NCBI GenBank assembly: GCA_943354835.1
Contig: CALRDH010000002.1
Location: 106,270-170,269, forward strand
Origin: a candidate division WWE3 bacterium
GTDB lineage: Bacteria; Patescibacteriota; WWE3; 2-01-FULL-39-13
Direction of reading: 5' to 3'
Length of the DNA stretch: 64,000 nt
Position numbers and translations under genes: made by a program
Shown: positions 24,013 through 50,002 of the stretch, in pieces
How the letters are laid out: the number at the start of each line of letters is the position of its first letter
How positions within the stretch are numbered: the stretch's first letter is position 1
The notes under the pieces: generated by a model
Database searches by the model: none
Seen by the model: the letters and a program-made list of their open reading frames with translations, nothing else
What the model was told of the DNA's origin: nothing

Positions 24013-24135
24013 TTATTTTATTTTCTGGTGCACCATCTGGGACGATGTTCGAACCTATCTGACCTCAACAATTGATCCCAAGGAGAAGTCTGCTCTCATT
24101 GTTGCCATTTCCTATTTCCGAAAGGAGGAACAACA

Positions 24136-27186: not shown

Positions 27187-27192
27187 AAAATA

Positions 27193-29316: not shown

Positions 29317-30122
29317 CGTAGTGTTTGTTTTGCAAAACTTATTAACTCGTCAACCTCCAAAGCGCGTACTTGTATGTTGCAAGCAAAAAGAGCAGAAGAA
29401 AAACGCATAGTCATGTCATGTAACTTTTTCATACTCGCCAGCTTTTCATTGGGTTTTGTCGGGTTACAAGATACCGTAAAAACGGCATAATGCTTTGTTG
29501 CTGTAAAGTTACTTTCATTTATCATATCGGTTAAGTTTTCAATGTACTGTGCAATCAAAGGCTCGCGTTTAGTATTTGATTTTGCATAGAGCGAAAAGAA
29601 ATGTTTTGAGTAGTCTTGTGTTTTAGCCTGTTCTTTTTTCACAATAAACTGCACTTGATCTGGCAAAACATGAAGCATTTGTTTTAACTTTAAAAAGAAG
29701 TGTTCTCGATCTTGATCATTTAAAAGTGATATATCAAAAGGCTCAACTTCTAAAAGTTGAATAATGCTATTTTTACGAATAACCAAGTTGTCTTGAATAG
29801 TAAAATCAACAAAGTATGGTTCTAGTTCTTTTTGTCTAAATGTTTTCTTGCCCTTTTTAAACATAATTGCTCTTGGAAAAATTTTATAAATTGGTTGATT
29901 ATCAATTCTTTGAGTTATAAATCCTACAAAAGCTATCTCAAGTACAATAAGTGAAGCCAAGTACATATTCCAATTAAATGCATGAAATACATATGTAAGC
30001 AAAAAGTACAAACTTCCTGCAATAAACACCCCTCCAACTAAAAAGATGGTGCTGTCTGTAAAAAACAGACTTCTTAAAATGTGTTGACGAATATCGTCTT
30101 TATATATTCTTACGTTTTTCAT
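29313..30122 (-). CDS. Small T4SS-associated membrane protein (hypothetical)
   Basis: Two TM helices; translationally coupled (4-nt overlap) to VirB4; start trimmed to MKNVRIY. Confidence 0.4.
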   Translation of the reverse strand: MKNVRIYKDDIRQHILRSLFFTDSTIFLVGGVFIAGSLYFLLTYVFHAFNWNMYLASLIVLEIAFVGFITQRIDNQPIYKIFPRAIMFKKGKKTFRQKELEPYFVDFTIQDNLVIRKNSIIQLLEVEPFDISLLNDQDREHFFLKLKQMLHVLPDQVQFIVKKEQAKTQDYSKHFFSLYAKSNTKREPLIAQYIENLTDMINESNFTATKHYAVFTVSCNPTKPNEKLASMKKLHDMTMRFSSALFACNIQVRALEVDELISFAKQTLR

Positions 30123-31863: not shown

Positions 31864-31865
31864 AG

Positions 31866-32150
31866 TTATACGGTTCCACCAACAAATTGCTTAATAATTC
31901 CAGCCAATGTTGCGGCACCAAATACAAGTAAACCACCGATTAGAATATTGATGATCCAACCTCTAAGTGTTGATTTACGCTCAGTATCATCTCCGCTCAT
32001 AACTAAAAAGATACCAAGTGTAGCAATGGCGATAGCCATAACAGGAAGAGAATACCATTGAAGAGTCTTGACTATACCCCATAGAAGACTGTCAAGGTTT
32101 GTGAACTGAATGGGTTGAGCTGCGTCATACCCCGGTATTCCGTTTGCCAT
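31866..32150 (-). CDS. VirB2/TrbC-like pilin subunit
   Basis: 94 aa with two hydrophobic helices in hairpin arrangement; first gene of the operon. Confidence 0.5.
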   Translation of the reverse strand: MANGIPGYDAAQPIQFTNLDSLLWGIVKTLQWYSLPVMAIAIATLGIFLVMSGDDTERKSTLRGWIINILIGGLLVFGAATLAGIIKQFVGGTV

Positions 32151-32366: not shown

Positions 32367-35042
32367 ATGAAATTTAAATTTGAATCTAATCTAAAATTTC
32401 AACTAGATGCTATATCATCTGTGACTGATTTATTTGTAGGTGCTCCATTTATCAAACCAGAGGAAGCTATCTTTTCTGAAGTCGCTAGTAATGTTTTAAG
32501 AATATCTCCAGAGGAAATATTTGCCAATCGTGACAAAGTTATAAAAAATAATGGTATTACGAACTCCTGTAAGGAAGATGTCTTAGATTTTTGTGTTGAG
32601 ATGGAAACAGGTACAGGGAAAACCTATGTATATCTAAGAACTATCCTCGAGCTTCACCAAAAGTATGGTCTTTCCAAATTTATTATCGTTGTGCCAAGCG
32701 TTGCGGTTAAAGAGGGAGTAATGAAAACCCTACAGATCACCAAAGATCACTTTGAGGAACTTTATAACTCTATCCCCTATAGTTACTTTGAGTATGACAG
32801 CAAGAAAATAAATAAAGTAAGAAGCTTTGTTTACTCTAATCACCTGCAAATCATGATAATGAATGTTCAAGCATTTAACGCTGATGACAGAATTATTAAT
32901 CAAGAAAGAGATTCAAATAATGGTGAAAAACTAATTGATTTAATAGAGAAAATCAGCCCTGTTTTGATACTAGATGAACCTCAAGTTGGCATGGATACAT
33001 CCAACACAAAAGATAGAAGAAGAAAACTTAACCCACTTTTTACCCTTCGTTATAGCGCTACTCATAAAGTAGTAAAGAATCTGATTCATAGGCTTAGTCC
33101 TTATGAAGCCTACAATCAAGGTTTGGTCAAAAAAATTGAAGTTTTTTCAATTCATGAGAGCAATACCCAAAGCAATGTTTATGTTGAATTTGAAGGTATT
33201 AAGTTGACCAGTGATAAGCCACAGGCAAAACTCAAGATTAGTTATAGGCTTGCTAGTGGGGATTTTAAGATAAAGTCTGGATATTTTAAAGATGGTGATG
33301 ATCTAGAAGAAAAAACTAAAAACCCTGTATATAAAGGGTGGGTTATCGAAAGAATACTCAAAGATCCTCTAAATGGTACGAGCACGATTAAATTTAGTAA
33401 TGGCATAAACTTAACACAGGGCGAATCGCACGGTATAGATAAAGAAAGTATCTTTAGAGAACAGATTCGCTGGACAATCAAAAAGCACTTCGATAAAAAG
33501 GATAAGTATAAAGATAAGAAAATTAAGGTTTTATCACTCTTTTTTATAGATAGAGTAGCTAATTATATAGAAGACAATTCATTAATAAGGGTCTTATTTG
33601 AGAAAGTTTACACTGAGGAGTATAAAAATAGATATAAAATTCTACCAGACAATATATCCAAGGTTCATGATGGGTATTTTGCAAAGACTTCACAAGGAGA
33701 CTATACCGATAGTGAACTATCAATGAGTAAAAACAGTGAAGCTTACCAAAAGATTCTAAAAGATAAAGAAAGACTACTTTCTTTTGAAGAACCGCTTGAA
33801 TTTATTTTCTCTCACTCAGCCTTGGGTGTTGGTTGGGACAACCCCAATGTTTTTAATATCTGTACTCTGAATGAAACTGAGAGTTTAATCAAAAAACGAC
33901 AGGAAATAGGGAGAGGCTTACGTTTAAGTGTTACTCAAGATGGTGTTCGATACAGAGACTCGCTAGATGTTGAAGAAGGCAAGGAAATCAACCTGCTAAC
34001 GGTAGTAGCAAACCAAAGCTATTATGCCTTTACTCAGTCTTATCAAGAAGAATTGATAGCAGAATATGGCTTTGGTGAAAAAAAACCAGATATTAGAAAT
34101 GCTAGACATGAACCAAAGCAAATTAGACTTAATAAAAATGCTATTACAAGCAATGATTTTCAAAACCTTTGGAAAAAAATATCTCAAAAAACCAGATGTA
34201 AGGTTTTCTTTAGGGAAGATTCAATTATTGAGAAATGTATTGAAAGTTTAAACACAATTGTTGTCCCAGAAGTTGTCATATCAATTAACTTAAATAGAAT
34301 TACGGGAATTTTAGAACAAGAAGAAGACATGATTCAAAGCAAGAATGTGGGCCAAACAGAAGCAGAAACCAAAGCCAAGTTTGCTCCTATGAATCTCTTT
34401 GAAGAAATTGCAAAAAATACAGCCTTGAGTGTAGCTACTGCTACTAAGATTTTAGAAGGCGTTCATAACAAGCAAATGATCATAAGAAACCCAGTCGTTT
34501 ATCTTACAGAAGCGATTAAACGTATTAAAAGAGTTTTAAATGATGAAATGGTTAGATTAGTTAGATATGAAGCTTTAAATGAGAGTTACTCACTTAAAGA
34601 ATTTGAAGATGTAGTTACAACTTATCAGCAAAGTAACATCATCGAAGTTAATAAGAGCATTTATGATCATGTGATTTGTGACAGCGATATTGAGAGAAAC
34701 TTTGCCTTAGATATAGATGAAGAAAACAAAGTTAGAATGTTTGTAAAACTACCACATTGGTATACTGTACCAACTCCTATTGGAAATTATAACCCAGACT
34801 TTGCTTTGGTACTAGAAAAAAAGAATTTAGATGATGGGGGTAAGTCCAATTTTTACTTTGTAATTGAAACCAAAGGATCAAGAGAATGGGAATCCTTAAA
34901 GGAAGATGAGAAAATGAAGATAGACTGTGCTATCAAGCATTTTGAAGCTATTGGCTTAAAGGAGTATTTAGCTCCAATCGAGAGTATGAGTACTTTTAAG
35001 TCAAAGGCAAATGAAGTTACTGGCGAAAATGTGTTTAGTTAA
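32367..35042 (+). CDS. res: Type III restriction enzyme Res subunit (SF2 helicase-nuclease)
   Basis: Helicase motif I METGTGKTYV, motif II LILDEPQ; N-terminus characteristic of Type III Res. Confidence 0.85.
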   Translation: MKFKFESNLKFQLDAISSVTDLFVGAPFIKPEEAIFSEVASNVLRISPEEIFANRDKVIKNNGITNSCKEDVLDFCVEMETGTGKTYVYLRTILELHQKYGLSKFIIVVPSVAVKEGVMKTLQITKDHFEELYNSIPYSYFEYDSKKINKVRSFVYSNHLQIMIMNVQAFNADDRIINQERDSNNGEKLIDLIEKISPVLILDEPQVGMDTSNTKDRRRKLNPLFTLRYSATHKVVKNLIHRLSPYEAYNQGLVKKIEVFSIHESNTQSNVYVEFEGIKLTSDKPQAKLKISYRLASGDFKIKSGYFKDGDDLEEKTKNPVYKGWVIERILKDPLNGTSTIKFSNGINLTQGESHGIDKESIFREQIRWTIKKHFDKKDKYKDKKIKVLSLFFIDRVANYIEDNSLIRVLFEKVYTEEYKNRYKILPDNISKVHDGYFAKTSQGDYTDSELSMSKNSEAYQKILKDKERLLSFEEPLEFIFSHSALGVGWDNPNVFNICTLNETESLIKKRQEIGRGLRLSVTQDGVRYRDSLDVEEGKEINLLTVVANQSYYAFTQSYQEELIAEYGFGEKKPDIRNARHEPKQIRLNKNAITSNDFQNLWKKISQKTRCKVFFREDSIIEKCIESLNTIVVPEVVISINLNRITGILEQEEDMIQSKNVGQTEAETKAKFAPMNLFEEIAKNTALSVATATKILEGVHNKQMIIRNPVVYLTEAIKRIKRVLNDEMVRLVRYEALNESYSLKEFEDVVTTYQQSNIIEVNKSIYDHVICDSDIERNFALDIDEENKVRMFVKLPHWYTVPTPIGNYNPDFALVLEKKNLDDGGKSNFYFVIETKGSREWESLKEDEKMKIDCAIKHFEAIGLKEYLAPIESMSTFKSKANEVTGENVFS

Positions 35043-35081
35043 ATTTTTTTTGAGAGTATTATAAAAAGAACAGTTAAGAAT

Positions 35082-37034
35082 ATGAAAAATATTACAACAA
35101 ATATTACAAATAAGATTGACAAACAGTCACCTGATCTTCGTCAAGAAATGTTGGATAAGTTAAAAAAGCTATACCCCCCTCTTTTTGATAACGAAGGCAT
35201 GTTAAATCAAGATGAGCTAGAGCAATTAGTAAGTGACTTTTCTACTCCCCAAACAGAGAAATATGAGTTTAACTGGGCTGGTAAACAGCAATCCAAGAAA
35301 AAAGCCTTTACTGCAAGTAAAGCAACTCTTAGAAGCGATGAAAAACGCAGTGTGGATTTTAATAATACAGATAATCTTATTATTGAAGGTGATAACTTAG
35401 AAGTCCTCAAGCTTTTACAAAAATCCTACTTTGGCAAGATTAAATGCATATACATTGACCCCCCCTACAATACCGGAAACGACTTTATTTACCCTGATGA
35501 CTATAGCGAAGACAAACAAGCTTATTGGGAAAAATCAGGAGTTAAGCAAGACGGAGTTAAATTAGATACTAATACTGATTCAAGTGGTCGTTATCATAGC
35601 AAGTGGCTCTCAATGATGTATCCAAGACTTCTTTTGGCTCGCAATTTGCTCAAAGAAGACGGAGCAATATTTGTAAGTATTGACGATAATGAAGCTCACA
35701 ATCTTAGAAAACTGATGGATGAGGTGTTTGGGGAAGAAAATTTTATCACTCAAGTGGTGGTGCAAACTAACCCAAGAGGAAGGTCTTTGGATAGACATTT
35801 TGCTAAGACCTTAGAGTATGTAATAGTGTATGGCAAAAATGCGGATACAAACACTTCAATTTTTGAAATTCAAAAGGGAGAAAAGGCTTTAGCCCAATAT
35901 AATAAAGGTGATAGTCAAGGACAGTATAGATTGCTTGAGCTAAGAAATAGAAACCCTGTTTTTACAAGAAAGAATAGACCTAATTTGTTTTACCCTATCT
36001 TTATCAATAAAGATACTGGCGAAGTTTCCTTGGAAAAAGACGAAGTATTTTCGACTGAAGCACTACCTCTTAATTCTAAAATGGAGGAGGGTTGTTGGAC
36101 TTGGGGTAAGAAAAAGTTTGAGAAAAATAAAAAAGACTTGATTGGGAACCTTGCCTCAACTGGTGTTTGGAGAATATTTCGAAAAGACTATATCCCTAGT
36201 GATGGTGCAACAACAAAAGAGAAAACATTGTGGATTGATTCATCCCTTAATCACGAAAACGGCAAAGAGGAAATGGCCGACTTATTCAATACAAGTGGTA
36301 GTAGTATACCTTTTGACTTTCCTAAATCCGTTGAATATTTAAAAAAAATAATAAATGTATCAACACAGTGGGGTGTGAACGATGTTTGTTTAGACTTTTT
36401 TGCTGGCTCAGGTACTACGGCTCATGCAGTGATGGATTTGAATAAAGAAGATGGAGGTAATAGGAAATTTATCTTGATTCAAATTCCAGAATCTACCGAT
36501 GAAAAGAGTGAAGCCTACAAAGCCGGATACAAAACCATTTCTGAAATTTGTATTGAGCGAGTTAAGCGCGCAAGTAAAAAAATTATAGATGGGGGAAATA
36601 AGATTGATGCTGGATTCAAAGTATTTAAGCTTGCTTCTAGCCATTTTCCAGAAAATACTTTTGCCCCTAATCCAGAAAAAAATGATGAAGAAAATAAAAA
36701 AGCCTTAGTGGCATATATTAGTAAGGCTATTTCTCAAAAGGGTTTGTTTAAAGATGGAGTTGTTGATTTAATTTATGAGATTGCTCTGAAAGATGGATTT
36801 GAGCTAACGCTCAAGATGTATAAGGTAAAGGAATTTGATGAAAATGTGGTTTATAAAGTCACAGACAGTCATAAAGAAGCCCTTATTTGCGTGGATGATA
36901 GTTTGGAAGATGCCACTATCAAACAACTTGAACGCCACAAAGACCAAAGATTTATTTGTTTACATACAAGCCTAAACACTACAAAAAAGTGGAATTTACA
37001 AAATATTCTTGGAAGTAATTTATGGTTGGTGTAA
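35082..37034 (+). CDS. mod: Type III N6-adenine DNA methyltransferase Mod subunit (beta class)
   Basis: Motif IV DPPY before motif I FFAGSGTTAHAV. Confidence 0.9.
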   Translation: MKNITTNITNKIDKQSPDLRQEMLDKLKKLYPPLFDNEGMLNQDELEQLVSDFSTPQTEKYEFNWAGKQQSKKKAFTASKATLRSDEKRSVDFNNTDNLIIEGDNLEVLKLLQKSYFGKIKCIYIDPPYNTGNDFIYPDDYSEDKQAYWEKSGVKQDGVKLDTNTDSSGRYHSKWLSMMYPRLLLARNLLKEDGAIFVSIDDNEAHNLRKLMDEVFGEENFITQVVVQTNPRGRSLDRHFAKTLEYVIVYGKNADTNTSIFEIQKGEKALAQYNKGDSQGQYRLLELRNRNPVFTRKNRPNLFYPIFINKDTGEVSLEKDEVFSTEALPLNSKMEEGCWTWGKKKFEKNKKDLIGNLASTGVWRIFRKDYIPSDGATTKEKTLWIDSSLNHENGKEEMADLFNTSGSSIPFDFPKSVEYLKKIINVSTQWGVNDVCLDFFAGSGTTAHAVMDLNKEDGGNRKFILIQIPESTDEKSEAYKAGYKTISEICIERVKRASKKIIDGGNKIDAGFKVFKLASSHFPENTFAPNPEKNDEENKKALVAYISKAISQKGLFKDGVVDLIYEIALKDGFELTLKMYKVKEFDENVVYKVTDSHKEALICVDDSLEDATIKQLERHKDQRFICLHTSLNTTKKWNLQNILGSNLWLV

Positions 37035-37060
37035 ATAAATAATGCATATATCTAAGCTGT

Positions 37061-39076
37061 ATGGATAAACTCTTACATGAAAATATAGAAATCGGCGGCG
37101 AAGGAGTTAAATCAATCCTAGCTAAATTTAAACCAGAAGAGGCGATAGCTGAGTTTATCTGGAATGGTTTTGATGCAAATGCAACTGAGGTCAATCTCGA
37201 CTATGATGTTTCTAGGGAATTGGGTGAGGTAGAGTTTATAAAGATATCAGATAATGGAACTGGAATTCCTCAAAATAAATTAAATAACAAATTCAAACCG
37301 TTTTTTGAATCAGAAAAAGCCAAAAATGGAAAAGATAAATCTCACCACTCTCTTACTCACGGAAAAAATGGAATTGGGCGCCTGACATTTTTTACCTTCG
37401 CAAACAAAGCTTGCTGGACAACAAGATACGAAGAAGAAACGCAGATAATTAAAGAATATGATATTGAGATTCAATCAAGGGATATAGAAAACTATACAGG
37501 AAGCAATACAGATCTTAGAGGTACGAATGAGAAGACAGGAACAGTTGTTGAGTTTACAGGCATAAATAAGTTAAACAAATATGACTTTGAAGGAAAAGTG
37601 TTAGAGCATCTACGCCAAGAGTTTGGTTGGTTTTTAGAAATATTTTCAAAATTAGGCTATTCACTTAATATTAATGGTAATAAACTTGACTATTCTAAAA
37701 TTATTGGAGATAGGGACTCAATAACTTTAAAGTATGCTGCTAATGACACGCAGTTTAATCTAGGTTATATTCGCTGGAATACGCACCTGAAAAATGAATA
37801 CTCAAGATTTTACCTTTTAAACAGCAAAGGGAAAGAGATTTGGAAGGACACTACCAAACTTAACAATAAAGGAGACTCTTTTTACCACAGCATTTTTGTT
37901 AAGAGCGATTATTTTGATAATTTCACTTACGATGAACAACAGTCAAATGGAGAAATAACACTTTTTGGTCACTCCAAAGAAGATGAAGAATATAAATATA
38001 TTGAAGAAGAAATAACAAATTATTTAAGAAAAAAAAGAAAACCTTTTTTAAAAGAGTTTGCAGAACAGTTAGTTAATACATATGAAAATGAAGGTATCAT
38101 GCCCACTTTTCAATCAGAATGGGATAAACCTAGGAGGGAAGAATTAAGAAATGTCATAAAGAATCTCTATGAGGTCGAGCCAAAAATATTCAGTCAATCA
38201 AGTATTGAACAAAAAAAGACATTTGTTAGACTACTAAATACTTTGTTAGATACTGAAGATAGAGAACGTATTTTACAGATTATTAAGGAGGTAGTAGATC
38301 TTGACGAACAAGAGCAAACTGATTTATTAGATCTACTTAAAGCTACAAAACTAGATAGAATAATCTCTACAATTAAATTTATTCAAAATAGATATAAAAC
38401 AATTGATGAGCTGAAAGCGATTGTTTTTGATAAAGAATTAAAAGGAAATGAACGAGACCATATTCAGAAATCAATAGACTTTAATTATTGGATATTTGGG
38501 GAGCAATACCATTTACTATCTACAACTGAGGCAAAGTTTGATACAGCATTAAGACAATACACTTCATATTTAACTGAGTCGCAAGACATAATTCCTATTA
38601 CACATATAGATAAAAATAAAGAAATGGATATATTTATGTGTAGACAAATGAAAGGAATCAATAAAATTGAAAATATTGTAGTGGAACTAAAAAGCCCTAG
38701 TGTGAATTTGGGTGAAAAGGAAGTGAGTCAAGTGAAGAAGTATATGAGTGTGATTTTAAGCACTGATCAATTCAATAGTGACAATACGTACTGGGAATTT
38801 ATCTTAGTTGGCAACAGATTTGATTCTTCTGGATATATTGAAGGGGAGCTTGAAAATAGTAAAGGGCATGGTGAACGAAATAATGGACTAATTTTTAAGA
38901 ACGATAAATATAGAATTTATGTAAAAAAATGGAGTGAGATTTTTGAAGAATTTGAAATAAGGCATAAGTTTATTGAAGAAAAGTTAGAAATCGCACGAGA
39001 TAGTATTGCATCAAATTATTCTTCCGCAGATGAAATTATTCAAATACAACAAGATAGATCTCAAAAAGTTATTTAA
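37061..39076 (+). CDS. GHKL (MORC/MutL-like Bergerat-fold) ATPase fused to C-terminal PD-(D/E)xK nuclease-like domain
   Basis: Bergerat motif I EFIWNGFDANATE (ExxxNxxDA), motif II ISDNGTGIP, G-box HGKNGIGRL; C-terminal MDIF...IVVELKSP candidate D...ExK; 26 bp downstream of mod on the same strand. Confidence 0.55.
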   Translation: MDKLLHENIEIGGEGVKSILAKFKPEEAIAEFIWNGFDANATEVNLDYDVSRELGEVEFIKISDNGTGIPQNKLNNKFKPFFESEKAKNGKDKSHHSLTHGKNGIGRLTFFTFANKACWTTRYEEETQIIKEYDIEIQSRDIENYTGSNTDLRGTNEKTGTVVEFTGINKLNKYDFEGKVLEHLRQEFGWFLEIFSKLGYSLNINGNKLDYSKIIGDRDSITLKYAANDTQFNLGYIRWNTHLKNEYSRFYLLNSKGKEIWKDTTKLNNKGDSFYHSIFVKSDYFDNFTYDEQQSNGEITLFGHSKEDEEYKYIEEEITNYLRKKRKPFLKEFAEQLVNTYENEGIMPTFQSEWDKPRREELRNVIKNLYEVEPKIFSQSSIEQKKTFVRLLNTLLDTEDRERILQIIKEVVDLDEQEQTDLLDLLKATKLDRIISTIKFIQNRYKTIDELKAIVFDKELKGNERDHIQKSIDFNYWIFGEQYHLLSTTEAKFDTALRQYTSYLTESQDIIPITHIDKNKEMDIFMCRQMKGINKIENIVVELKSPSVNLGEKEVSQVKKYMSVILSTDQFNSDNTYWEFILVGNRFDSSGYIEGELENSKGHGERNNGLIFKNDKYRIYVKKWSEIFEEFEIRHKFIEEKLEIARDSIASNYSSADEIIQIQQDRSQKVI

Positions 39077-40577
39077 TTAAATATTTCAAAATAGTGTATA
39101 TCTTCAACATCGCCATTGTGTCCATTTCACAGTACCTGAGTAGGTTTTCTTTAATTGTTTCTTTTTTTGAAGTTTCTGCATTTTCATATACCATTTCAAA
39201 CCAGCTCGTCATGGCTGTTGCGCCTTCTCCAATTTCGAGTTCATTGTATGAAAAATCAGGAGCAAAAAGTGGAAGCACATTTTTTATTGAGTAACTCCCT
39301 TTTAGTTTTGGATCTGCGTACCATTGTTTTTGAAATATATCCATGAGGTCATAGATCCGCTCATTCATATTTAGGCAAAAATCTGCAAACTGAGGGTGAA
39401 TTTCTGCCATGCGTTTATTTTGTGTTCCTTCAAATGATTTATTCCAAACGATAAGCGAGCCTTCTTTTCCAATGTGTTTTTGCAGTTCTGTCAAAAAGTT
39501 TGGGATAGGATCAATTTGAGACGTTTCTATAAATTCAAAATGTTCTAGCTCTCGGCCTTGTTGTTGTATGTGCAGTGACCACTGAAAAGGCATCTGATCA
39601 AATGGTTTGTAACCATCATACATAGGAATAGCCGGGTTATATGATTCATAATCGATAAAATAAAGTGGGTAGATTACTCCACTTAAATCTTTTTGAATCT
39701 TGTTTGAATCGATCTCAACCTTATTGTTTTGAGCAACATCTACTTGAAAGCGTTGTATTTTTGAAAGTGAAAAGTCTTTTGGTACATCAAAAACACTTTC
39801 AATACCTTGATCAATAAGATCTCGCATCTTGGCAACATTCGCCGATAATCGATTAATATCGTAGATAGAATAATCTGGAAGATCTGGGTGACAGATATCG
39901 AGACAAGGACACTCTTTTGGTTTAATGCATTTATCAGCAGATTGTAGATTGTTTTTTTGGGCTGTAGTAAAAGCTTCTTGTCGTAACTCTATAACTTCAT
40001 CGGTTAGTTTGCTAACTTCTTCTGTAATATCAGAGACAGTGAATAATTCAGATAGGCTTACATCTCCACTGCGTACATATTCTTTATTAAGATGTAGTAT
40101 GTTTAGCGTTCCTATGTCGTAAGACTCTCTAAATACGAGGTATTGAAAAGTGGCATCGAATTTGTGTGTCTTTTTAACATCATTGGTACTTTTGATTTCA
40201 TAAATATCCCACTTATTTGTTTTGACGTTTTTAATGAGAACATCTGTTCTTGCCTGAAAGTTGCCGTGTATGTGTGTTGGCTGTAAAAATACATTATCAG
40301 GGTCAATCTTGTAACTTGGGATGAGGATGTTCTGAATGTATTTTTCAGCTTGCTCTTCTACCTCATACCCTTGATCGAATAGGTGTTGAATAAAAACATT
40401 TATTTCTTTTTCAGAAAGCTTATTGTTTTTCAGTGCCCAGAGATGCCGTGGAGCATCGAGGAAAGCTATAAAGTCGGTTTTTGTGATCATCATGTATCTT
40501 CCGATTATACTGGAAAATGAAATTATATCTCTCATTATTGGGTGGTTTTCCCTTTTCTTCCTATCATGCTTCTTCAT
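39069..40577 (-). CDS. DUF2779-like dual nuclease: RecB/Cas4-like PD-(D/E)xK with 4-Cys cluster plus C-terminal DEDDy 3'-5' exonuclease-like domain
   Basis: N-terminal D(VLI)...YEIK...QYLVF (D, ExK, QxxxY) and CIKPKECPCLDIC cluster; C-terminal Exo I DYE, Exo III YCEMD; 8-nt convergent overlap with 37061..39076. Confidence 0.55.
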   Translation of the reverse strand: MKKHDRKKRENHPIMRDIISFSSIIGRYMMITKTDFIAFLDAPRHLWALKNNKLSEKEINVFIQHLFDQGYEVEEQAEKYIQNILIPSYKIDPDNVFLQPTHIHGNFQARTDVLIKNVKTNKWDIYEIKSTNDVKKTHKFDATFQYLVFRESYDIGTLNILHLNKEYVRSGDVSLSELFTVSDITEEVSKLTDEVIELRQEAFTTAQKNNLQSADKCIKPKECPCLDICHPDLPDYSIYDINRLSANVAKMRDLIDQGIESVFDVPKDFSLSKIQRFQVDVAQNNKVEIDSNKIQKDLSGVIYPLYFIDYESYNPAIPMYDGYKPFDQMPFQWSLHIQQQGRELEHFEFIETSQIDPIPNFLTELQKHIGKEGSLIVWNKSFEGTQNKRMAEIHPQFADFCLNMNERIYDLMDIFQKQWYADPKLKGSYSIKNVLPLFAPDFSYNELEIGEGATAMTSWFEMVYENAETSKKETIKENLLRYCEMDTMAMLKIYTILKYLIK

Positions 40578-40582
40578 TCTAT

Positions 40583-40702
40583 GGGGTTAAAATCATCTGT
40601 CAAAAGGTGGGTTTTTAGCTCGTTCCTCACTAAAAATCCTTTTTGACTTTGCTTTGCTCCGCAAAAACTTTTGACAGACCACTTTCGTTTGATTTTCACC
40701 CC
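40583..40702. repeat. Long imperfect inverted repeat in the DUF2779/RadC intergenic region
   Basis: Arm 40583..40610 GGGGTTAAAATCATCTGTCAAAAGGTGG; reverse complement of arm 40668..40702 shares GGGGT(T/G)AAAATCA and TCTGTCAAAAG blocks. Confidence 0.6.
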
Positions 40703-40782
40703 ATGCCCCTTTTTTTGCATGATAGGAATAAAAATCTTATCTGCAAGTTATTAATTTATTAAAGAAAGGGGGTGAGATCGAG

Positions 40783-41199
40783 ATGATTATCAAACTGCAA
40801 GATGCCAAAGTATCAGTAGCTAGTCCTAAGTGTGTATTTGAGCTGTTAAAAGCTTACTTTCTGACACTTGATGATTTTGATCAAGATAAAGAACACTTCT
40901 TTGTTTTTCATCTGGATATTAGAAACAAAATCAAAATTATGGATTTGGTTAGTGTTGGTACTCTAACACAGTCATTAGCGCATCCAAGAGAGGTATTTAC
41001 AAGAGTTATTCATAAGAGAACACCAGCGATAATACTTGCCCATAATCATCCATCAGGCGAAACAAGTCCGTCTTATGAGGACATAAGCATAACTAAACGC
41101 TTGTGTGAAGCTGGAAAGATACTCTCAACAGATGTAATAGATCACATCATTTTTACTGATAATGAGTTCTATAGCTTTAAAGAGCATGAGCTGATTTAG
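40783..41199 (+). CDS. RadC-like JAB/MPN domain protein
   Basis: JAMM motif HNHPSGETSPS; strong RBS AAGAAAGGGGGTGAG. Confidence 0.85.
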   Translation: MIIKLQDAKVSVASPKCVFELLKAYFLTLDDFDQDKEHFFVFHLDIRNKIKIMDLVSVGTLTQSLAHPREVFTRVIHKRTPAIILAHNHPSGETSPSYEDISITKRLCEAGKILSTDVIDHIIFTDNEFYSFKEHELI

Positions 41200-41233
41200 A
41201 GGTAGTAGTTATTAATTTATTCCCTTAAAGGAG

Positions 41234-41560
41234 GTGAAAGTTATGAAATTATTAACAAAGGAATTGTTGATGAGGTTTGAGAAGGTTGGCAGACAAGAGG
41301 ATGATAAAGATCCGATTGTTATTGCAAAGTTCTTTAATCCAACAGGAGCAGGTACTTGGCTTGCAACTGAGTACGATCCTCATTCAAAAGAATTCTTTGG
41401 ATTTGTATCGATATTTGGTGATTACAACGACGAGTGGGGATACTTTTCTCTTGATGAGCTAGAAAGCTACATTGGTAGATTTGGCTTAGGCATTGAAAGA
41501 GATAGGTATTTTACCGAGAAACGAATGAGTGAGGTAATGCCAAGTGCAATACTAGAGTAA
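41234..41560 (+). CDS. Small conjugative-element-associated protein (DUF2958-like, hypothetical)
   Basis: 108 aa with RBS AAAGGAGGTG; such families commonly sit next to RadC in ICEs; assignment tentative. Confidence 0.35.
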   Translation: MKVMKLLTKELLMRFEKVGRQEDDKDPIVIAKFFNPTGAGTWLATEYDPHSKEFFGFVSIFGDYNDEWGYFSLDELESYIGRFGLGIERDRYFTEKRMSEVMPSAILE

Positions 41561-41568
41561 GTTAAACT

Positions 41569-41600
41569 AATCCGTGGGTAGTGAAAGCTACCTGCGGATT
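41569..41600 (+). terminator. Hairpin (13-bp stem, 6-nt loop), copy 1 of repeated terminator-like module
   Basis: AATCCGTGGGTAG-tgaaag-CTACCTGCGGATT; module GAGTAAGTTAAAcTAATCC... repeated at 41795. Confidence 0.55.
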
Positions 41601-41641
41601 TAGTTTCAGATTATTATTAATAGTTAAAGGATATAAAAAAT

Positions 41642-41800
41642 ATGATAAACCCATTACTAACCGAACCATTTGAGAGTGAGATTTTAGAGCTGATTGAAAC
41701 GAGTGACGAGTTTACAACCAGCGACCTACAAGGCGTTGTTACCGTGTTGGTGAACAAGATTATGATTAAAGGGCACGAGATTTTGAAAGAGTCAGAGTAA
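41642..41800 (+). CDS. Small acidic hypothetical protein (52 aa, below ORF-track cut-off)
   Basis: ATG at 41642, stop TAA at 41798-41800; followed by hairpin copy 2. Confidence 0.25.
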   Translation: MINPLLTEPFESEILELIETSDEFTTSDLQGVVTVLVNKIMIKGHEILKESE

Positions 41801-41808
41801 GTTAAATT

Positions 41809-41851
41809 AATCCGTGGGTAGTTGCCAACAGCTACCTGCGGATTTTTTTAT
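41809..41851 (+). terminator. Rho-independent terminator (hairpin copy 2 plus T-tract)
   Basis: AATCCGTGGGTAG-ttgccaacag-CTACCTGCGGATT followed by TTTTTTTA. Confidence 0.7.
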
Positions 41852-41862
41852 ATTCAGGACTT

Positions 41863-42216
41863 TTGATTAATTTTATAAATTTAGATTATAATGAATTCAT
41901 GTACAAAATATTTGTAATGGTTCCAGTAGAAAATACAGATGAGATTATTACTGCAATGGCTGATGCGGGGGCTGGAGTTATAGGCAACTACACTCATAAT
42001 GCTGTTATTACCGCTGTTATGGGTAATTGGATGAGTGAAGAGGGCTCTAACCCCACAATTGGAGAAGTAGGCAAAATGAGCAGAGAATCAGAAAACAAAG
42101 TAGAAATGGTTTGCCCAGAAGATAAATTAGAGGGAGTTGTTAAAGCAATGCGAAAAGTTCACCCATATGAAACAGCCGCAGTTGATGTAATTAAGTTAGA
42201 AGATCTAAAATACTAA
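41863..42216 (+). CDS. CutA/PII-like small protein (NIF3 insert-domain-like)
   Basis: C-terminal HPYETAAVDV motif; likely true start at MYKIFVMVPV (41899). Confidence 0.4.
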   Translation: MINFINLDYNEFMYKIFVMVPVENTDEIITAMADAGAGVIGNYTHNAVITAVMGNWMSEEGSNPTIGEVGKMSRESENKVEMVCPEDKLEGVVKAMRKVHPYETAAVDVIKLEDLKY

Positions 42217-42217
42217 T

Positions 42218-42667
42218 ATGAATCAACAGGAACTTAATCAAAAAGCAAAGGATATTGTAAATTCAAACAAATACGTGAGTCTTGCTACAACAGATCAATC
42301 AAGACCTTGGATTGCTCCAGTTTTTTACTGTAAAGATGACAAATACAACTTTTATTTCATCTCTCAACCAGAAAGCTTACACATAAAGCATCTAAAGTTT
42401 ACGAATGAGGTTGCTTTTGCTATTTTTGACTCACACCAAGAGGAAGGCCAGGGAAATGGTGTTCAGGGATCAGCAAAAGTTGAATTATTGGAAGGTGACC
42501 AGATTGAAGATGGCTTGAAGTACTACTCGACGAGTTTTATTGAAATGACCACGGAATCTTTAAGAGAACCTTCTCCATATAGGTTGTACAAAATGATTCC
42601 AGAAAAAGTATTTATACTGGATGCAGAAGCAGATGTAGACAAGAGAATTGAAGTGTTTTTTAATTAA
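42218..42667 (+). CDS. PNPOx-like FMN-binding split-barrel protein
   Basis: KYVSLATTDQSRPWIAPVFYCKDDKYNFYFIS characteristic of the general stress protein 26 / PNPOx fold. Confidence 0.6.
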   Translation: MNQQELNQKAKDIVNSNKYVSLATTDQSRPWIAPVFYCKDDKYNFYFISQPESLHIKHLKFTNEVAFAIFDSHQEEGQGNGVQGSAKVELLEGDQIEDGLKYYSTSFIEMTTESLREPSPYRLYKMIPEKVFILDAEADVDKRIEVFFN

Positions 42668-46897: not shown

Positions 46898-46906
46898 ATT
46901 CTCCTA

Positions 46907-47636: not shown

Positions 47637-47897
47637 TTAAAACGGTAATACTTCTGACGATTTTACTTTTAGTGCTATACAAATATTTTCTATAACCGCA
47701 AATGTTGGGTTTTCTTCTCCACGTTCTATACCTGCATAATAAGTTACCGATATACCACTAGCTTTAGCTACTTCTTCTTGCGAAAGTTGCAAGCCCGAGC
47801 GTATTTCTCGTAGATTTTCGCCAAACTTTTGCTGGCTTTTTGGATTTACAGATGAATTCATAACCATAGTATATCTCAAATTTTTATAGTTCGTCAT
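47637..47897 (-). CDS. XRE-family helix-turn-helix transcriptional regulator
   Basis: HTH LSQEEVAKASGISVTYYAGIERGE. Confidence 0.8.
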   Translation of the reverse strand: MTNYKNLRYTMVMNSSVNPKSQQKFGENLREIRSGLQLSQEEVAKASGISVTYYAGIERGEENPTFAVIENICIALKVKSSEVLPF

Positions 47898-47937
47898 ATT
47901 TTACACTTTTTACTCTAGAAATTGCAAAATTTCCACT

Positions 47938-47979
47938 TGACACTACAACTATAGTTGTATAAACTATAACTATAGTTAC
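47938..47979. promoter_or_regulatory. Promoter with two 12-bp perfect palindromic operators
   Basis: TTGACA (47938..47943); CAACTATAGTTG (47947..47958); TATAAA (47959..47964); TAACTATAGTTA (47968..47979); lies between the divergent XRE gene and the recombinase operon. Confidence 0.7.
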
Positions 47980-47999
47980 AGTAATTTAGATACAAAACC

Positions 48000-48209
48000 A
48001 TGAGTAAAGAGTTACTAGAAAAATTTAAAAAGCTATATTACGAGAAGTTTGGTATTGCTCTTGGCAACGAAGAAGCAACAGCAATGGCAAATGATCTTGT
48101 TAACTTAATGAAAGTACTATTAGAACCAGATAAGTCGAAAAGTACAGAATTCAAGTTGGAAGAAAGGAGCGAATATGCGACTATCGAAACACAACAACAA
48201 TACATTTAA
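48000..48209 (+). CDS. Small hypothetical protein (possible excisionase/RDF-like accessory)
   Basis: 69-aa ORF immediately upstream of, and overlapping, the recombinase start. Confidence 0.3.
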   Translation: MSKELLEKFKKLYYEKFGIALGNEEATAMANDLVNLMKVLLEPDKSKSTEFKLEERSEYATIETQQQYI

Positions 48210-49902
48210 TCAACAAGACAAAATACCTGTAATTAACAGGTACTTAGTTTACTGTCGAAAAAGCAGTGAATCTGATGAGCGTCAAATTCAATCACTTCCC
48301 GATCAAATACACACATTAATGACTTATGTCTCTTCTCGTGGCTTAGAAACAATTGGAGAGCCATTGCAAGAGTCAAGATCGGCAAAGATTCCGGGTAGAC
48401 CCGTGTTTGATCAACTTGTTCAAAAAATAGAAGATGGCGAAGCAAACTGTATAGTTTTATTAAACCCTTCAAGGCTTTCACGAAATACTGTTGATACAGG
48501 GAGAATTATTTACCTTATGGACCAAGGTAAACTACAGGAAGTAGTTACTCCTTACCAGACCTTTATAAATAATCCTTACGACAAGTTTATGCTTAATTTG
48601 CTTTGTACACAGGCTAAACTCGAAAATGATAACAAAAGTGTAAATGTGCGAGAGTCGTTACAACTGAAAGCTGAACGAGGTGTATTCCCAGGAAAAGCAA
48701 GACCTGGATATAAAAACAACCACGAAAAACCGCAAGGTTTGCGAGATATTTCAGCAGATCCTGTAACTTTCCCTCTTATGCGAAAGCTGTTTGATTTGGC
48801 ACTTACAGGAAATTACAGTATAGAAAAACTGATAAAAGAAGCAGGAGAACTCGGTATAAGGAGTTCAAAAAGTGGTAAGCCCATTTGCAAAAGTTGGATG
48901 CACCGTTTGCTTCGAGACCCTTTTTATACAGGTAAATTTATGTATTGCGGAAAGCTGTATGAAGGCAACCACCCTGCAATGCTCAACGATGATGAATTTA
49001 ACCTACTTCAAGATATTGTTGAAGGTAGATCAAAAGGAAAATCCAAGAAACACGATTCTGCATTAAATGGACTAATCACATGTGGCGAGTGTGGATATCG
49101 CATTACTGTAGAAACTCACACCAAGCACTATAAAAATGGCAATTCACAGGTATTTGCATACTACAGATGTACCAAAAAGGGTACAGAGTGTAAGTGTAAT
49201 CAACCATATGTTTCCACCGATAAGCTTGAAAACGAATATGTTGAGGATCTTACAAAGTTCGAGCTTATACCAGAATTTGCTGATATAGCATTCCAAGCAT
49301 TAGAAGAAGTAAAAGAAAAAGATGACCATGTAAATAAAAATAGCCATGAGGCACAGCAGAAGGCATTAGAGAATATAAACAAGAGAATTAATAACCTTGT
49401 TTCGCTTAAAATATCTCCCGATAACTCAGACGGAAGTTTGCTTTCTGACGAAGAGTTTGGAGATAGAAAACGAAACTTGCTTATTGAGAAAGAACAGTTG
49501 ATGAAAAAATTATCTCAAACTGATCCTAAAAATACCGAGTGGGCTAATATTGCAAAAGAAAGTTTTAACTTTGGATTACTAGCTGCAAAACGATTTGAAA
49601 ATGGAACCTCAGAAGCCAAAAAAATTATCTTCAATACAATCGGCTCGTACCCAAAGCTAAAAGACAAAAAACTGCAGTACAAAGCCAAATACCTGTTTTT
49701 TAAGTATAAAGAAGGGGTAAAAGAGACAAATGAGAAAATGAGTCCGCTCGTACCTGCAAACGTAGTGTCAGACCAGTCTAATCTCGAAAATTATCTAAAA
49801 AATAGTTTATGGTGCCGAGGAGAGGACTTGAACCTCCAAACCCTTTCGGGCACAGCCACCTCAAGGCTGCGCGTCTGCCATTTCGCCACCTCGGCATGGT
49901 GA
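48175..49902 (+). CDS. Large serine recombinase (integrase)
   Basis: N-terminal resolvase catalytic domain YLVYCRKSSESDERQ (catalytic Ser); recombinase domain; zinc-ribbon CGECGYR...YYRCTKKGTEC; coiled-coil; last ~31 codons antisense to tRNA-Leu(GAG). Confidence 0.85.
   Translation: MRLSKHNNNTFNQQDKIPVINRYLVYCRKSSESDERQIQSLPDQIHTLMTYVSSRGLETIGEPLQESRSAKIPGRPVFDQLVQKIEDGEANCIVLLNPSRLSRNTVDTGRIIYLMDQGKLQEVVTPYQTFINNPYDKFMLNLLCTQAKLENDNKSVNVRESLQLKAERGVFPGKARPGYKNNHEKPQGLRDISADPVTFPLMRKLFDLALTGNYSIEKLIKEAGELGIRSSKSGKPICKSWMHRLLRDPFYTGKFMYCGKLYEGNHPAMLNDDEFNLLQDIVEGRSKGKSKKHDSALNGLITCGECGYRITVETHTKHYKNGNSQVFAYYRCTKKGTECKCNQPYVSTDKLENEYVEDLTKFELIPEFADIAFQALEEVKEKDDHVNKNSHEAQQKALENINKRINNLVSLKISPDNSDGSLLSDEEFGDRKRNLLIEKEQLMKKLSQTDPKNTEWANIAKESFNFGLLAAKRFENGTSEAKKIIFNTIGSYPKLKDKKLQYKAKYLFFKYKEGVKETNEKMSPLVPANVVSDQSNLENYLKNSLWCRGEDLNLQTLSGTATSRLRVCHFATSAW
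49810..49895 (-). tRNA. tRNA-Leu(GAG)
   Basis: Leu backbone with long variable arm; anticodon loop TTGAGGT; CCA encoded. Confidence 0.85.
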
Positions 49903-49925: not shown

Positions 49926-50002
49926 TGGTGGTTGAGACTGGGTTCGAACCAGTGACCTTTCGGATGTAAACCGAATGCTCTAACCAGCTGAGCTACTCAA
50001 CC
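49926..50002 (-). tRNA. tRNA-Val(TAC)
   Basis: 77 nt; acceptor GGTTGAG/CTCAACC; anticodon loop TTTACAT; CCA encoded. Confidence 0.8.

Follow-up and report, generated by a model that had tools for sequence, protein, structure and literature searches.

The usual account of serine integrases is that they avoid tRNA genes. Exceptions, called rare, are the serine recombinases of eight Mycobacterium AICEs, which target tRNA-Leu, and that of phiRSM1, which targets the 3' end of tRNA-Ser (Ghinet et al., 2011, PMC3218068). The locus described here resembles these in that a serine recombinase integrates into a tRNA gene; it differs in that the lineages are unrelated, that an overlap of recombinase and attP is not described for them, and that AICEs transfer by FtsK-like translocases rather than by type IV secretion. 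Against these cases, the present clade of large serine recombinases (LSRs) comprises at least 590 loci in species-representative genomes, and its targets have shifted between tRNAs of at least six identities.

In streptococci, ICEs whose only integrase is a serine recombinase aimed at rumA have one copy of a direct repeat inside the integrase gene; on integration, the integrase and target genes trade their 3' portions, and the integrase C-terminus is altered (Ambroset et al., 2016, PMC4701971). Like the present element, these are ICEs moved by a large serine recombinase whose C-terminus is changed by integration. The differences are that their target is a protein-coding gene, which is altered, whereas here it is a tRNA gene, which is rebuilt exactly; that the host phylum is another; and that conservation of a native tail, tRNA mimicry and a 5-bp shift are not reported in the accessible text.

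The attB of phage Mx8 lies in a tRNA-Asp gene. In Mx8 (IntP/IntX) and in SSV-type viruses, the reports place attP inside the integrase gene, which integration changes (Mx8) or splits (SSV) (PMC4383910, PMC6070905, PMC7253208). They share with our locus an attP core within the integrase frame and an integrase changed by integration, but they use tyrosine recombinases with long common cores and are phages or archaeal viruses, not ICEs.

For the recombinase itself, the closest solved relative is the SPbeta-type YokA/SprA (9dxh), a weak sequence match (E=1e-8). In the LI/A118 model of attachment site recognition, attP and attB agree in the position of the inner motif, and the outer motif is 5 bp closer to the centre in attB (Rutherford et al., 2013, PMC3783163). 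Our locus has the same domain set, short attachment sites and a 5-bp shift of the outer motif, here for the P'/B' pair only; it differs in that the attB half-site is a tRNA T-arm and in the lack of a recognised directionality factor. All the ingredients have precedents, but the literature that could be searched gave no match for their combination or for this Patescibacteria-wide clade.

Here, we describe a window of 64,000 nt (the whole stretch of DNA that was analysed) from a Patescibacteria (CPR) genome. We put at about 80% the probability that, as gene content and junctions indicate, positions 24026-49815 are a 25.8-kb ICE, of which the 2.3 kb covered by the original prediction are the regulation and integration module and the right end. 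Its insertion point is the last six bases of a tRNA-Leu(GAG) gene.

Gene content of the element

The genes of the element outside this module, and the left flank, are as follows.

ending at 24012: RhuM gene, host flank left of attL
24136..24606, + strand: PLD-like nuclease (PLDc_2, E=3e-11), ATG overlapping the stop of the recombinase tail (ATGA)
26422..32150, - strand: mating-pore gene block (M23 peptidase, VirB4-like, 286-aa ORF, VirB6/TrbL-like, pilin)
27193-29316, - strand: VirB4-like ATPase
30100-31863, - strand: VirB6/TrbL-like protein
31866-32150, - strand: VirB2/TrbC pilin
32367..42667: cargo (type III restriction-modification, HATPase_c_3 protein, DUF2779, RadC, DUF2958, PNPOx-like protein)
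32367-35042 and 35082-37034: type III restriction-modification, res and mod
42673-43512, - strand: Replic_Relax (PF13814) putative relaxase
43582-46260, - strand: type IV coupling protein

Of the features by which an ICE is recognised, the following are present: VirB4-like, VirB6/TrbL and VirB2/TrbC proteins, an M23 hydrolase, a coupling protein and a PF13814 putative relaxase, together with a site-specific recombinase and defined attL and attR ends. Intergenic repeats at 41554-41845 may serve as oriT. Among 13 related loci (L001-L013), the relaxase is syntenic with the XRE and recombinase genes in nine and the coupling protein in 11.

Attachment sites

The original prediction had taken the overlap of the recombinase gene with a tRNA gene as a mark of the attachment site and element boundary. 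This held: the core of attR at the tRNA has its counterpart in attL, 25.8 kb away.

24026..24031, + strand: attL common core TGGTGC, the window's only TGGTGC followed by a homologous P' arm
24032..24138, + strand: P' arm of attP with the detached last 35 recombinase codons (TIWDDVRTYLTSTIDPKEKSALIVAISYFRKEEQQ plus stop)
49810..49815, + strand: attR common core TGGTGC, complement of tRNA positions 71-76 (GCACCA)
49810..49895, - strand: tRNA-Leu(GAG), intact (ARAGORN; Rfam 51 bits), forming the B' arm of attB
49926-50002: tRNA-Val(TAC), next after tRNA-Leu(GAG)

The attR core and P arm are conserved in 13 loci, the P arm being the last ~8 codons of the native part of the integrated recombinase (...LKNSLWC). 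The reference for attL is a set of junctions of related elements in which P, core and P' are unsplit (L003, L094, L097 and L112); the P' arm of the window is ~80% identical to that of L003 and near-identical to that of L094. TGGTGC is the only sequence common to attL and attR, with no long direct repeat; published Int-S cores measure 5-8 bp (PMC8092301). Since attP and attB share only TGGTGC, the complement of G71-C72-A73-CCA, the tRNA is rebuilt exactly. The Islander signature of tRNA-gene islands combines a tyrosine integrase with a displaced piece of tRNA of a length that shows up as a direct repeat; the locus departs from it in having a serine recombinase as integrase, a repeat of 6 bp and an attL without a tRNA match. 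A tRNA-Leu(CAG) at 14794 (85% identical over 96 nt, 35 kb spacing) was considered as the other element end and rejected, because this is a paralogous tRNA in complete form and the actual P' arm is that at 24026.

The Rfam scan at attL gave no tRNA-like match, so that the P' arm is a mimic of the T-arm and not a tRNA fragment. Counted from the first T of the core, P' has GGGAC at 14-18 nt and GAACC at 26-30 nt, and B' has AGGAC at 14-18 and GAACC at 21-25. GGGAC or AGGAC occupies 14-18 in P' arms and tRNA arms alike. GAACC lies at 26-30 in every P' arm and at 21-25 in all indexed tRNA arms (the window, L001, L009 and L011), the latter because tRNA geometry demands it. The P' arm copies the tRNA T-arm with GGGAC at the same offset and GAACC 5 bp further out, the 5-bp insert of P' being GATGT; a shift of this kind is what the LI-integrase structural model expects between attP and attB half-sites. 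GAACC was also sought in the P and B arms and is absent from both; the attP/attB argument therefore stands on one half-site pair (P'/B').

Given this anatomy, the large serine recombinase would join attP to the 3' end of tRNA-Leu(GAG), its attB. If the enzyme recognises what all tRNAs share, namely the CCA end and the T-arm, the moves of relatives among Leu, Glu, Arg, Asn, Gln and Ser tRNAs would be accounted for. The predicted junctions are …AATAGTTTATGGTGCACCATCTGGGACG… for attP and …TTATTTTATTTTCTGGTGCCGAGGAGAGG… for attB, with 40-mers over them of AAAAAATAGTTTATGGTGCACCATCTGGGACGATG (attP) and GTTATTTTATTTTCTGGTGCCGAGGAGAGGACTTG (attB). Comparison of junctions places the probable 2-bp crossover within GTGC. 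Separately, the attP palindrome, centred between TATGGTG and CACCATA, would imply GC as the crossover dinucleotide; being palindromic, GC would not set orientation.

The recombinase gene and its exchanged tail

48175..49902, + strand: large serine recombinase, integrated form, 575 aa, with Resolvase, Recombinase and Zn_ribbon_recom domains

The catalytic domain (PF00239, E=2.8e-17) spans residues 25-170 and is accompanied by a Recombinase domain (PF07508, E=4.5e-9) and a zinc ribbon (PF13408, E=2.2e-11). Y26, C27, R28, K29 and S30 (YCRKS), R100 and R103 are invariant in 43 sequences. An AlphaFold2 model of a homologue has long helices at 365-412 and 424-448, as expected of the coiled coil inserted in the zinc-ribbon domain.

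As originally described, the ORF runs through the complement of tRNA-Leu(GAG); the ~31 codons reported are 30 codons plus stop, covering the whole tRNA gene and ending 7 nt past it. Residues 1-547 are native, codons 546-547 (W546-C547) are the core, codon 546 (TGG) being the complement of the tRNA CCA, and residues 548-575 are encoded by the antisense strand of the tRNA. On sequence comparison, these 28 residues are incidental antisense coding and not a functional C-terminus. The conserved native C-terminus is encoded at the far end of the element (24032-24135) and is joined to the gene only in the unsplit attP form, which specifies a free-form recombinase of 582 aa ending in the conserved helical tail TIWDDVRTYLTSTIDPKEKSALIVAISYFRKEEQQ. 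The LSR gene spans the attachment site, so insertion exchanges the tail of the enzyme: the two ends show a swap in which, on this evidence, integration leaves 35 codons at attL and fuses 28 tRNA-antisense codons in their place. The C-terminal conservation on which the original prediction had depended is found in the detached tail and not in the tRNA-encoded residues.

The overlap is widespread among relatives. Of 13 close relatives, 12 have the tRNA 3' end directly at LSR codon 546 or no more than 7 nt from it; of 19 loci with 31-38% identity, 10 have a recombinase ORF that overlaps a tRNA, and an eleventh has a tRNA 96 nt downstream. More distant relatives have tRNA-Asn, Gln, Ser or Glu as target. 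Tails that are tRNA-antisense occur in 74 of the best 120 homologues, and 33 stop at most two codons from WC. Proteins ending in 'WCG' were considered as attP forms and rejected, the stop lying inside a tRNA-Leu variant, TGGTGCGGGTGA (seen in L008). A terminator-like hairpin, weakly evidenced, lies antisense to the recombinase 3' end at 49745-49762.

The native tail measures 31-37 aa among relatives and is under purifying selection. We consider it unlikely that it is conserved non-coding DNA, serving as recombinase site and as promoter or ribosome-binding site of the PLD-like gene, with the recombinase ending near WC in both states. Such a role would fit the first nine tail codons, which overlie the P' half-site and hardly vary at the DNA level, and the last codons (KKE/RKE), which coincide with the AAGGAGG Shine-Dalgarno sequence of the next gene; tail length also varies from 31 to 37 aa, and two tails (in proteins P0026 and P0039) are shorter and divergent. 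However, the tail frame is open in all five DNA examples and is the only frame that is, and differences are concentrated at codon position 3. Codons 12-32 combine near-saturated synonymous change (pS 0.47-0.88) with low non-synonymous change (pN 0.18-0.37). The full tail is found in ten further database proteins and a partial one in two, and substitutions among tail-bearing proteins are conservative (K/N/Q, S/A/T, I/L/V). In the AlphaFold2 model of the L003 protein, helices span 530-559 and 562-578 with pLDDT near 80, and the junction falls inside a confident helix. Extended tails, with a common xVRTY-like motif, are present as well in more distant recombinases that have no tRNA.

Reading the tail as protein-coding, the overlap of its stop with the ATG of the PLD-like gene means that the nuclease gene belongs to the recombinase operon only when the element is circular. 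The same ATGA overlap occurs in L094 and L097, where PLD-like homologues follow P' in the same order as in the window.

Searches for empty sites and circular forms

The original prediction proposed comparison with relatives lacking the element, and this yielded nothing: exact-protein look-ups for SOD, RhuM and the recombinase (the flanking PPIase is not on record) found no empty site. They returned the same strain only, in four samples, with every contig occupied or broken at the tRNAs, and no circular junction of the window element was found in these samples. One metagenome scan with the host flank plus core gave 0 matches, which is uninformative rather than negative, since the collection may lack the species; a scan of viral contigs with the P' arm also gave 0 matches.

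A metagenome scan with the P arm, core and A gave 37 matches, mostly chance. Unsplit or partial junctions among them are L094, L097 and L112 only; five are tRNA fusions, and in L104 and L123 the end of the P arm continues into neither tRNA nor P'. The unsplit P-core-P' junctions in L003 (a full 579-aa recombinase), L097 (a 1.9-kb contig with recombinase end, tail, PLD gene and M23 gene) and L112 (a truncated recombinase) belong to related elements and not to that of the window. L003 and L112 appear to be remnants that have decayed in the chromosome and not circles, and L097 is the only unsplit junction with the gene order expected for a circle or tandem junction.

These results bear on whether the element is a fixed, immobile island whose recombinase is a relic or domesticated and whose tRNA overlap is a frozen accident without present function. 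The failure to find an empty site or circular junction for the window element in the four samples would agree with this, as would the lack of the native tail in the integrated recombinase, and L003, L032 and L112 show that such elements do decay. We nevertheless judge immobility quite improbable: the recombinase is full length with invariant catalytic residues, every conjugation gene tested is intact, and the operators described below are perfect palindromes. At attL the detached tail has kept its reading frame open, and purifying selection acts on the tails across elements, as would be expected only of elements that regularly go through the unsplit form.

Regulatory region

47637..47897, - strand: XRE-family repressor candidate (HTH_3, E=1.8e-12; PHROG transcriptional repressors)
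47898..47927, - strand: XRE promoter-like site TTGCAA, 18 nt, TAAAAT (9/12 matches, consensus match only)
47937..47965, + strand: promoter of the orf69-recombinase operon, TTGACA, 17 nt, TAAACT (10/12 matches)
47946..47957: operator candidate O1, CAACTATAGTTG, in the promoter spacer
47967..47978: operator candidate O2, TAACTATAGTTA, just past the -10, over the expected transcription start
48000..48209, + strand: orf69, 69 aa, conserved two-helix protein, overlapping the recombinase start by 35 nt

The true start of the XRE protein is probably TTG 47879, or else ATG 47867; gene callers give a length of 76 aa. Homologues with 42-77% identity occupy the same position in 12 of the loci L001-L013 plus L032. 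The two palindromes noted in the original prediction do overlap a TTGACA promoter; the gap between them is 9 bp and their centres are 21 bp apart. The TATAAA proposed as its -10 (47958-47963) overlaps a better one, TAAACT at 47960-47965, which with TTGACA at 47937-47942 forms the top promoter-like site of the region. O1 extends to a 16-bp palindrome, TACAACTATAGTTGTA (47944-47959). The exact core AACTATAGTT occurs in the 64 kb at O1 and O2 only, with a chance expectation of ~0.2 by our estimate.

The layout CTTGACA / AACTATAGTT / TATACT / AACTATAGTT is kept in 12 loci, where CTTGAC is invariant; the final A of TTGACA is shifted by an alignment gap in the window row only. In L003 and L011 both half-sites change jointly to CACTATAGTG; no clear co-variation of the XRE recognition helix with the operator variants was seen, the variant loci being two only. 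This conservation in position and sequence supports the originally proposed repressor control of the promoter for the small-ORF/recombinase operon.

The product of orf69, a two-helix hairpin, has no HTH and no match in PHROGs or in a Foldseek search of the PDB, and in Pfam only a sub-threshold match to T6SS-SciN; our guess is that it is an accessory or directionality factor. Of the CI/Cro-type switch that had been proposed, the HTH repressor and the palindromic operators over divergent promoters stand at the level of sequence, while a Cro-like partner does not, orf69 being without an HTH. The arrangement resembles ImmR/CI-type control in its small HTH_3 repressor divergent from an excision/integration operon and in the paired palindromes, with predicted binding, over the promoter; it differs in lacking a recognised ImmA-like protease, an S24 peptidase domain in the XRE protein and a Cro-like partner. 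With no peptidase domain in the XRE protein and no anti-repressor identified, no induction route was found.

A temperate prophage with a CI/Cro-type bistable switch over integration and excision, in keeping with the original description as phage-like, is very improbable: although the XRE protein matches a phage repressor family (PHROG phrog_3, E=3e-12), the recombinase matches a phage integrase family (phrog_95, E=8e-72) and the genes diverge from an operator-covered promoter region, the 25.8 kb between attL and attR hold type IV secretion, coupling protein and relaxase genes and no capsid, terminase, tail or lysis genes, eight element proteins scanned against PHROGs matched no phage structural family, a scan of the ORFs from 90 aa upwards in 24026-49815 gave no phage morphogenesis or lysis genes, orf69 has no HTH, family or fold match, and the closest phage recombinases are at most 24% identical (plasmid recombinases at most 29%).

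Proposed cycle and implications

For the ICE that we favour, an XRE dimer bound at each operator would keep the orf69-recombinase operon silent by blocking its TTGACA-17-TAAACT promoter. If repression were lost, orf69 and the recombinase would be expressed and the element excised. In the circle, the recombinase would be full length again and the nuclease gene would be part of its operon. Transfer by the products of the relaxase, coupling protein and type IV secretion genes would come next, and after it integration in the recipient.

A recombinase C-terminus that depends on the state of the element, and an operon that depends on the circle, offer concrete hypotheses for directionality control. 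We put forward tentatively, and would sooner doubt than accept, a joint reading in which the tail swap is a state sensor, circularisation activates the nuclease and at least some type IV secretion systems of Patescibacteria are true conjugation machines. The full-length recombinase encoded by the circle would then be the integration-proficient form, and the tRNA-tailed form encoded by the chromosome would differ in directionality or stability; the C-terminus given by the att configuration would partly set excision versus integration, with orf69 as a helper, and circularisation would turn on the PLD-like nuclease through operon fusion.

The present large clade uses tRNA 3' ends systematically and might supply integrases for sites that are universally conserved. 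Its T-arm mimicry with a 5-bp displacement is a natural test case for the structural rule that discriminates attP from attB. A 2025 survey found relaxases near few Patescibacteria type IV secretion clusters (PMC12102498); in the present element, whose ends are mapped, the secretion genes are accompanied by a recombinase, a coupling protein and a PF13814 putative relaxase. If the joint reading is true, some type IV secretion systems of Patescibacteria would be conjugation machines on tRNA-targeting serine-recombinase ICEs, and PF13814 relaxases may evade MOB typing.

Integration site and element boundaries

The regulation and integration end of the element lies at window positions 47637-49902, downstream of its transfer and cargo genes.

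Features of the element (window coordinates)
42673-43512, - strand: Replic_Relax/PF13814 protein
43582-46260: type IV coupling protein
Upstream of the switch: mating-pore genes (VirB4-like ATPase, VirB6/TrbL-like protein, VirB2/TrbC pilin)
Upstream of the switch: M23 wall hydrolase
Upstream of the switch: cargo (type III restriction-modification, RadC, DUF2958, others)
47637-47897, - strand: XRE gene (HTH_3, E=1.8e-12; start probably TTG 47879 or ATG 47867)
47927-47898: XRE promoter-like site, back to back with the LSR-operon promoter and weaker
47937-47942: TTGACA of the orf69-LSR promoter, then 17 nt and a TAACT-type -10, TAAACT
47946-47957: palindrome 1, CAACTATAGTTG, perfect
47967-47978: palindrome 2, TAACTATAGTTA, perfect
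48000-48209: orf69, a 69-aa ORF overlapping the LSR start
48175-49902: large serine recombinase (LSR), integrated form, 575 aa; Resolvase, Recombinase and Zn_ribbon_recom domains
49810-49895, - strand: tRNA-Leu(GAG)

The three domains together identify the recombinase as an LSR. Its codon 546 (TGG) is the complement of the tRNA CCA. The ORF traverses the entire tRNA beyond; the original prediction had already described a read-through of the tRNA complement. That prediction had also suggested that the attachment site and element boundary lie at this overlap, and a matching second end has now been located. In L003, a close-relative locus without the tRNA, TGGTGC is followed by ACCATATGGGACGAGACTCGTACC, and the same continuation is present at window 24026 (...TTATTTTATTTTC TGGTGC ACCATCTGGGACGATGTTCGAACC...), 14 nt past the RhuM stop codon. 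This places the integrated ends attL at 24026-24031 and attR at 49810-49815 and gives an element of 25.8 kb.

The sequence common to attL and attR comprises only six bases. They correspond to tRNA positions 71-76, and integration thus restores the exact tRNA sequence. Some junctions in other hosts depart from TGGTGC at the initial two or three positions (TTGTGC for the relatives L007 and L008; CAGTGC or GGnTGC as implied by attL peptides elsewhere), which places the crossover within GTGC. With TTGTGC instead of TGGTGC at L007 3651-3656 and L008 7624-7629, the rebuilt tRNA-Leu would end in CAA, not CCA; either the element arm has mutated and repair by the CCA-adding enzyme is needed, or CCA is not encoded by the tRNA genes of these hosts.

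On the host side of attL, 20549-24012 encodes Fic, DUF2157, a 152-aa ORF and RhuM. Since such genes are common on mobile islands, this flank may belong to an older island, with tRNA-Arg and tRNA-Phe (20278-20505) as its boundary, beside which or into whose edge the element inserted. The right flank carries a RelB-like antitoxin and ParE/YafQ-like toxin pair (53277-53929) and a 26-nt internal fragment of tRNA-Gly(GCC) (53861-53886, 96% identical to 56282-56307), 2.4 kb from the intact gene and separated from it by glyoxalase, HAD hydrolase and acetyltransferase genes, with no integrase. This fragment may reflect either the decay of a tRNA copy or the scar of an old island.

An LSR gene that spans attP

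Judged from sequence, the LSR gene spans attP, the element's own site (P arm, core, P' arm), and the isoforms encoded by its free and integrated forms would differ. As integrated, the gene encodes 547 native and 28 tRNA-antisense residues, compared with 582 aa predicted for the free form. Across unsplit junctions, where P, core and P' are contiguous, the LSR frame continues into a tail of 31-37 aa encoded in the P' arm (TIWDDVRTYLTSTIDPKEKSALIVAISYFRKEEQQ for the window, TIWDETRTYSTSRIDSKEKTALLEAIEYFTKEV for L003, and similar sequences in the metagenome junction contigs L094, L097 and L112). It is the only frame open in all five sequences, and the differences fall mostly at third codon positions. 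The first nine codons coincide with the binding site; for the codons after them, pS is 0.47-0.88 versus a pN of 0.18-0.37.

A protein search with the reconstructed C-terminus recovered ten more ORFs with the full tail at attL sites of other hosts, and two more with part of it. AlphaFold2 predicts for the L003 protein that the junction falls within a helix (530-559) followed by a second (562-578), both with pLDDT near 80, in a model that is otherwise mediocre (mean pLDDT 66). In the window, L094 and L097, the tail stop overlaps the ATG of a PLD-like nuclease gene (ATGA), which places this gene in the LSR operon only in the unsplit form. Extended tails also occur in more distant recombinases without a tRNA neighbor (L027, L028, L030, L031), and a related xVRTY-like motif is present in three of these tails.

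The metagenome contigs came from a scan with P arm plus core as the query. L097 (1.9 kb) runs from the recombinase end through the tail and the PLD gene to the M23 gene, an order that a circle or a tandem junction would produce; L112 has an unsplit junction with a truncated recombinase, and L094 a partial junction with the P arm reduced to about 17 nt. Two unsplit junctions are located in apparent decayed chromosomal remnants. For the window element itself, flank and LSR protein look-ups, same-strain contigs and one metagenome scan yielded no empty site or circular junction.

tRNA overlap across the family, and T-arm mimicry

LSR homologs number >1,700 proteins at E<=1e-10, and all those that are named belong to Patescibacteria (Roizmanbacteria, Woykebacteria, Microgenomates, Saccharimonadales). 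Nearly all of the best 120 have ...LKSS[LVI]WC followed by a tRNA-antisense peptide such as REDLNLH or RRDSNPR; by C-terminus, 74 of these 120 have a tRNA-antisense tail, 33 stop within two codons of WC and the tails of three are of another, non-tRNA kind. In a scan of species-representative genomes, at least 590 loci were confirmed, of which 80 were retained, nearly all titled as, or resembling, Patescibacteria MAGs.

Among close relatives (58-71% identity), an opposite-strand tRNA lies at or within 7 nt of LSR codon 546 in 12 of 13, the tRNAs being Leu (four anticodons), Glu and Arg. The final LSR codons, ...TTAAAAAGTTCTnTA TGGTGC, are conserved in DNA, and the tRNA complement follows. At 31-38% identity, the ORF overlaps tRNA-Asn, Gln, Glu or Ser in 10 of 19 loci, and in one more a tRNA is located 96 nt downstream. 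Across the loci compared, tRNA overlap is a property of the family. L006 appears to have one tRNA cluster flanked by two such elements. Its first recombinase has as its target tRNA-Leu(GAG), the near end of a six-tRNA array; on the far side of the array, a second (8487-10101, 34% identical) is convergent with the 3' end of tRNA-Gly(GCC).

Counted from the first core T, AGGAC or GGGAC occupies positions 14-18 of the tRNA arm and GAACC positions 21-25 in the four loci indexed (window, L001, L009, L011), a placement fixed by tRNA geometry. All P' arms have GGGAC at 14-18 and GAACC (GTACC in L003) at 26-30, and this outward shift makes P' a mimic of the tRNA T-arm with a 5-bp insert. The GAACC motif was not found in the P and B arms, and a single half-site pair provides the support for the LSR attP/attB model, which the attachment-site logic would fit. 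The 3' end of tRNA-Arg(TCT) at 20430-20460, TGGTGCACCTGGTAGGATTCGGACC, is closer to the P' arm TGGTGCACCATCTGGGACGATGTTCGAACC than tRNA-Leu is, and P' may derive from an Arg-type tRNA arm.

A conjugative element

The original prediction called the switch phage-like, an identity that the gene content contradicts. Type IV secretion, coupling and putative relaxase genes are present, and PHROG matches among eight proteins scanned are limited to repressors, integrases and one replication protein. The LSR has no relative above 24% identity in an annotated phage collection or above 29% in a plasmid collection. The element is a conjugative element, not a phage, with transfer itself predicted from its genes.

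A Replic_Relax (PF13814) protein lies beside the coupling protein in nine of 13 related elements (L001, L002, L004, L006, L008-L010, L012, L013). A 2025 survey with MOBscan reported that few relaxases lie close to the type IV secretion genes of Patescibacteria (PMC12102498), and PF13814 serves as a relaxase marker in another study (PMC11104534); the protein may be a relaxase that the survey overlooked. About 0.9 kb from its gene, between DUF2958 and a 117-aa ORF, an intergenic module of ~48 nt is duplicated (41554-41601 and 41794-41845, 240-244 nt apart). It consists of a 29-nt repeat (97% identity) and an exact 16-nt repeat, each copy is hairpin-capable (CCGTGGGTAG / CTACCTGCGG), and its candidate roles are oriT and regulatory RNA. 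In the cargo (37061-40577), a 671-aa HATPase_c_3 protein directly follows the type III restriction-modification genes, and the opposite strand encodes a 502-aa DUF2779/RNase_H-like protein; the two may form a defense module.

Regulation of the recombinase operon

The XRE gene, both palindromes, the TTGACA promoter and the small ORF are all present as predicted. The palindromes are 9 bp apart (21 bp between centers), and the 10-mer AACTATAGTT has exact copies only there within the 64-kb window. TTGACA-17-TAAACT is the top-scoring promoter-like site of the region (10/12 consensus matches). In a 12-locus alignment two stretches are invariant: CTTGAC (the last A of TTGACA is shifted by an alignment gap in the window row only) and, within the promoter spacer, CTATA at the center of the first AACTATAGTT copy. 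The -10 reads TATACT or TATTCT (TAAACT, with one base extra, in the window), the second AACTATAGTT copy lies at the expected transcription start, and the orf69 ATG is conserved and aligned in most loci. L003 and L011 have CACTATAGTG, with both half-sites altered symmetrically, which is what a dimer-binding site predicts.

XRE homologs (42-77% identity) occupy the same position in 12 of the 13 close-relative loci and in the further locus L032. Conservation of orf69 is seen as tblastn matches in five of the 13 and L032, and in L003 at a looser threshold; it is confidently predicted as a two-helix hairpin, and no fold match was found for the predicted structure. We soundly infer that the XRE protein would repress the orf69-LSR operon. 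This much of the proposed CI/Cro-type switch stands; a bistable CI/Cro circuit is not supported by the evidence at hand. Between the coupling-protein and XRE genes, 46276-47300 has a G+C of 0.42 versus about 0.34 and three small - strand ORFs (119, 98 and 48 aa) that match neither Pfam nor PHROG, two of them called as genes in same-strain contigs.

Precedents

Serine-recombinase integration into tRNA genes has been called rare, the known cases being eight Mycobacterium AICEs in tRNA-Leu and phage phiRSM1 in tRNA-Ser (PMC3218068), and the Islander paper describes serine recombinases as without known tRNA-gene targeting (PMC4383910). Integrases of Mx8 and SSV reach across attP (PMC4383910; PMC6070905). 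In streptococcal ICEs with a rumA-specific serine integrase, one repeat lies within the integrase gene, and C-termini are exchanged on integration (PMC4701971). Durrant et al. do not use the term tRNA in their large survey of LSRs, the 2025 Patescibacteria type IV secretion survey mentions neither recombinases nor tRNAs (PMC12102498), and the searchable library held no literature combining Patescibacteria and serine recombinases. The individual parts have precedents; what appears to be undescribed is how they are combined, how large the clade is, the mimicry of the tRNA, and a conserved tail that can be detached.
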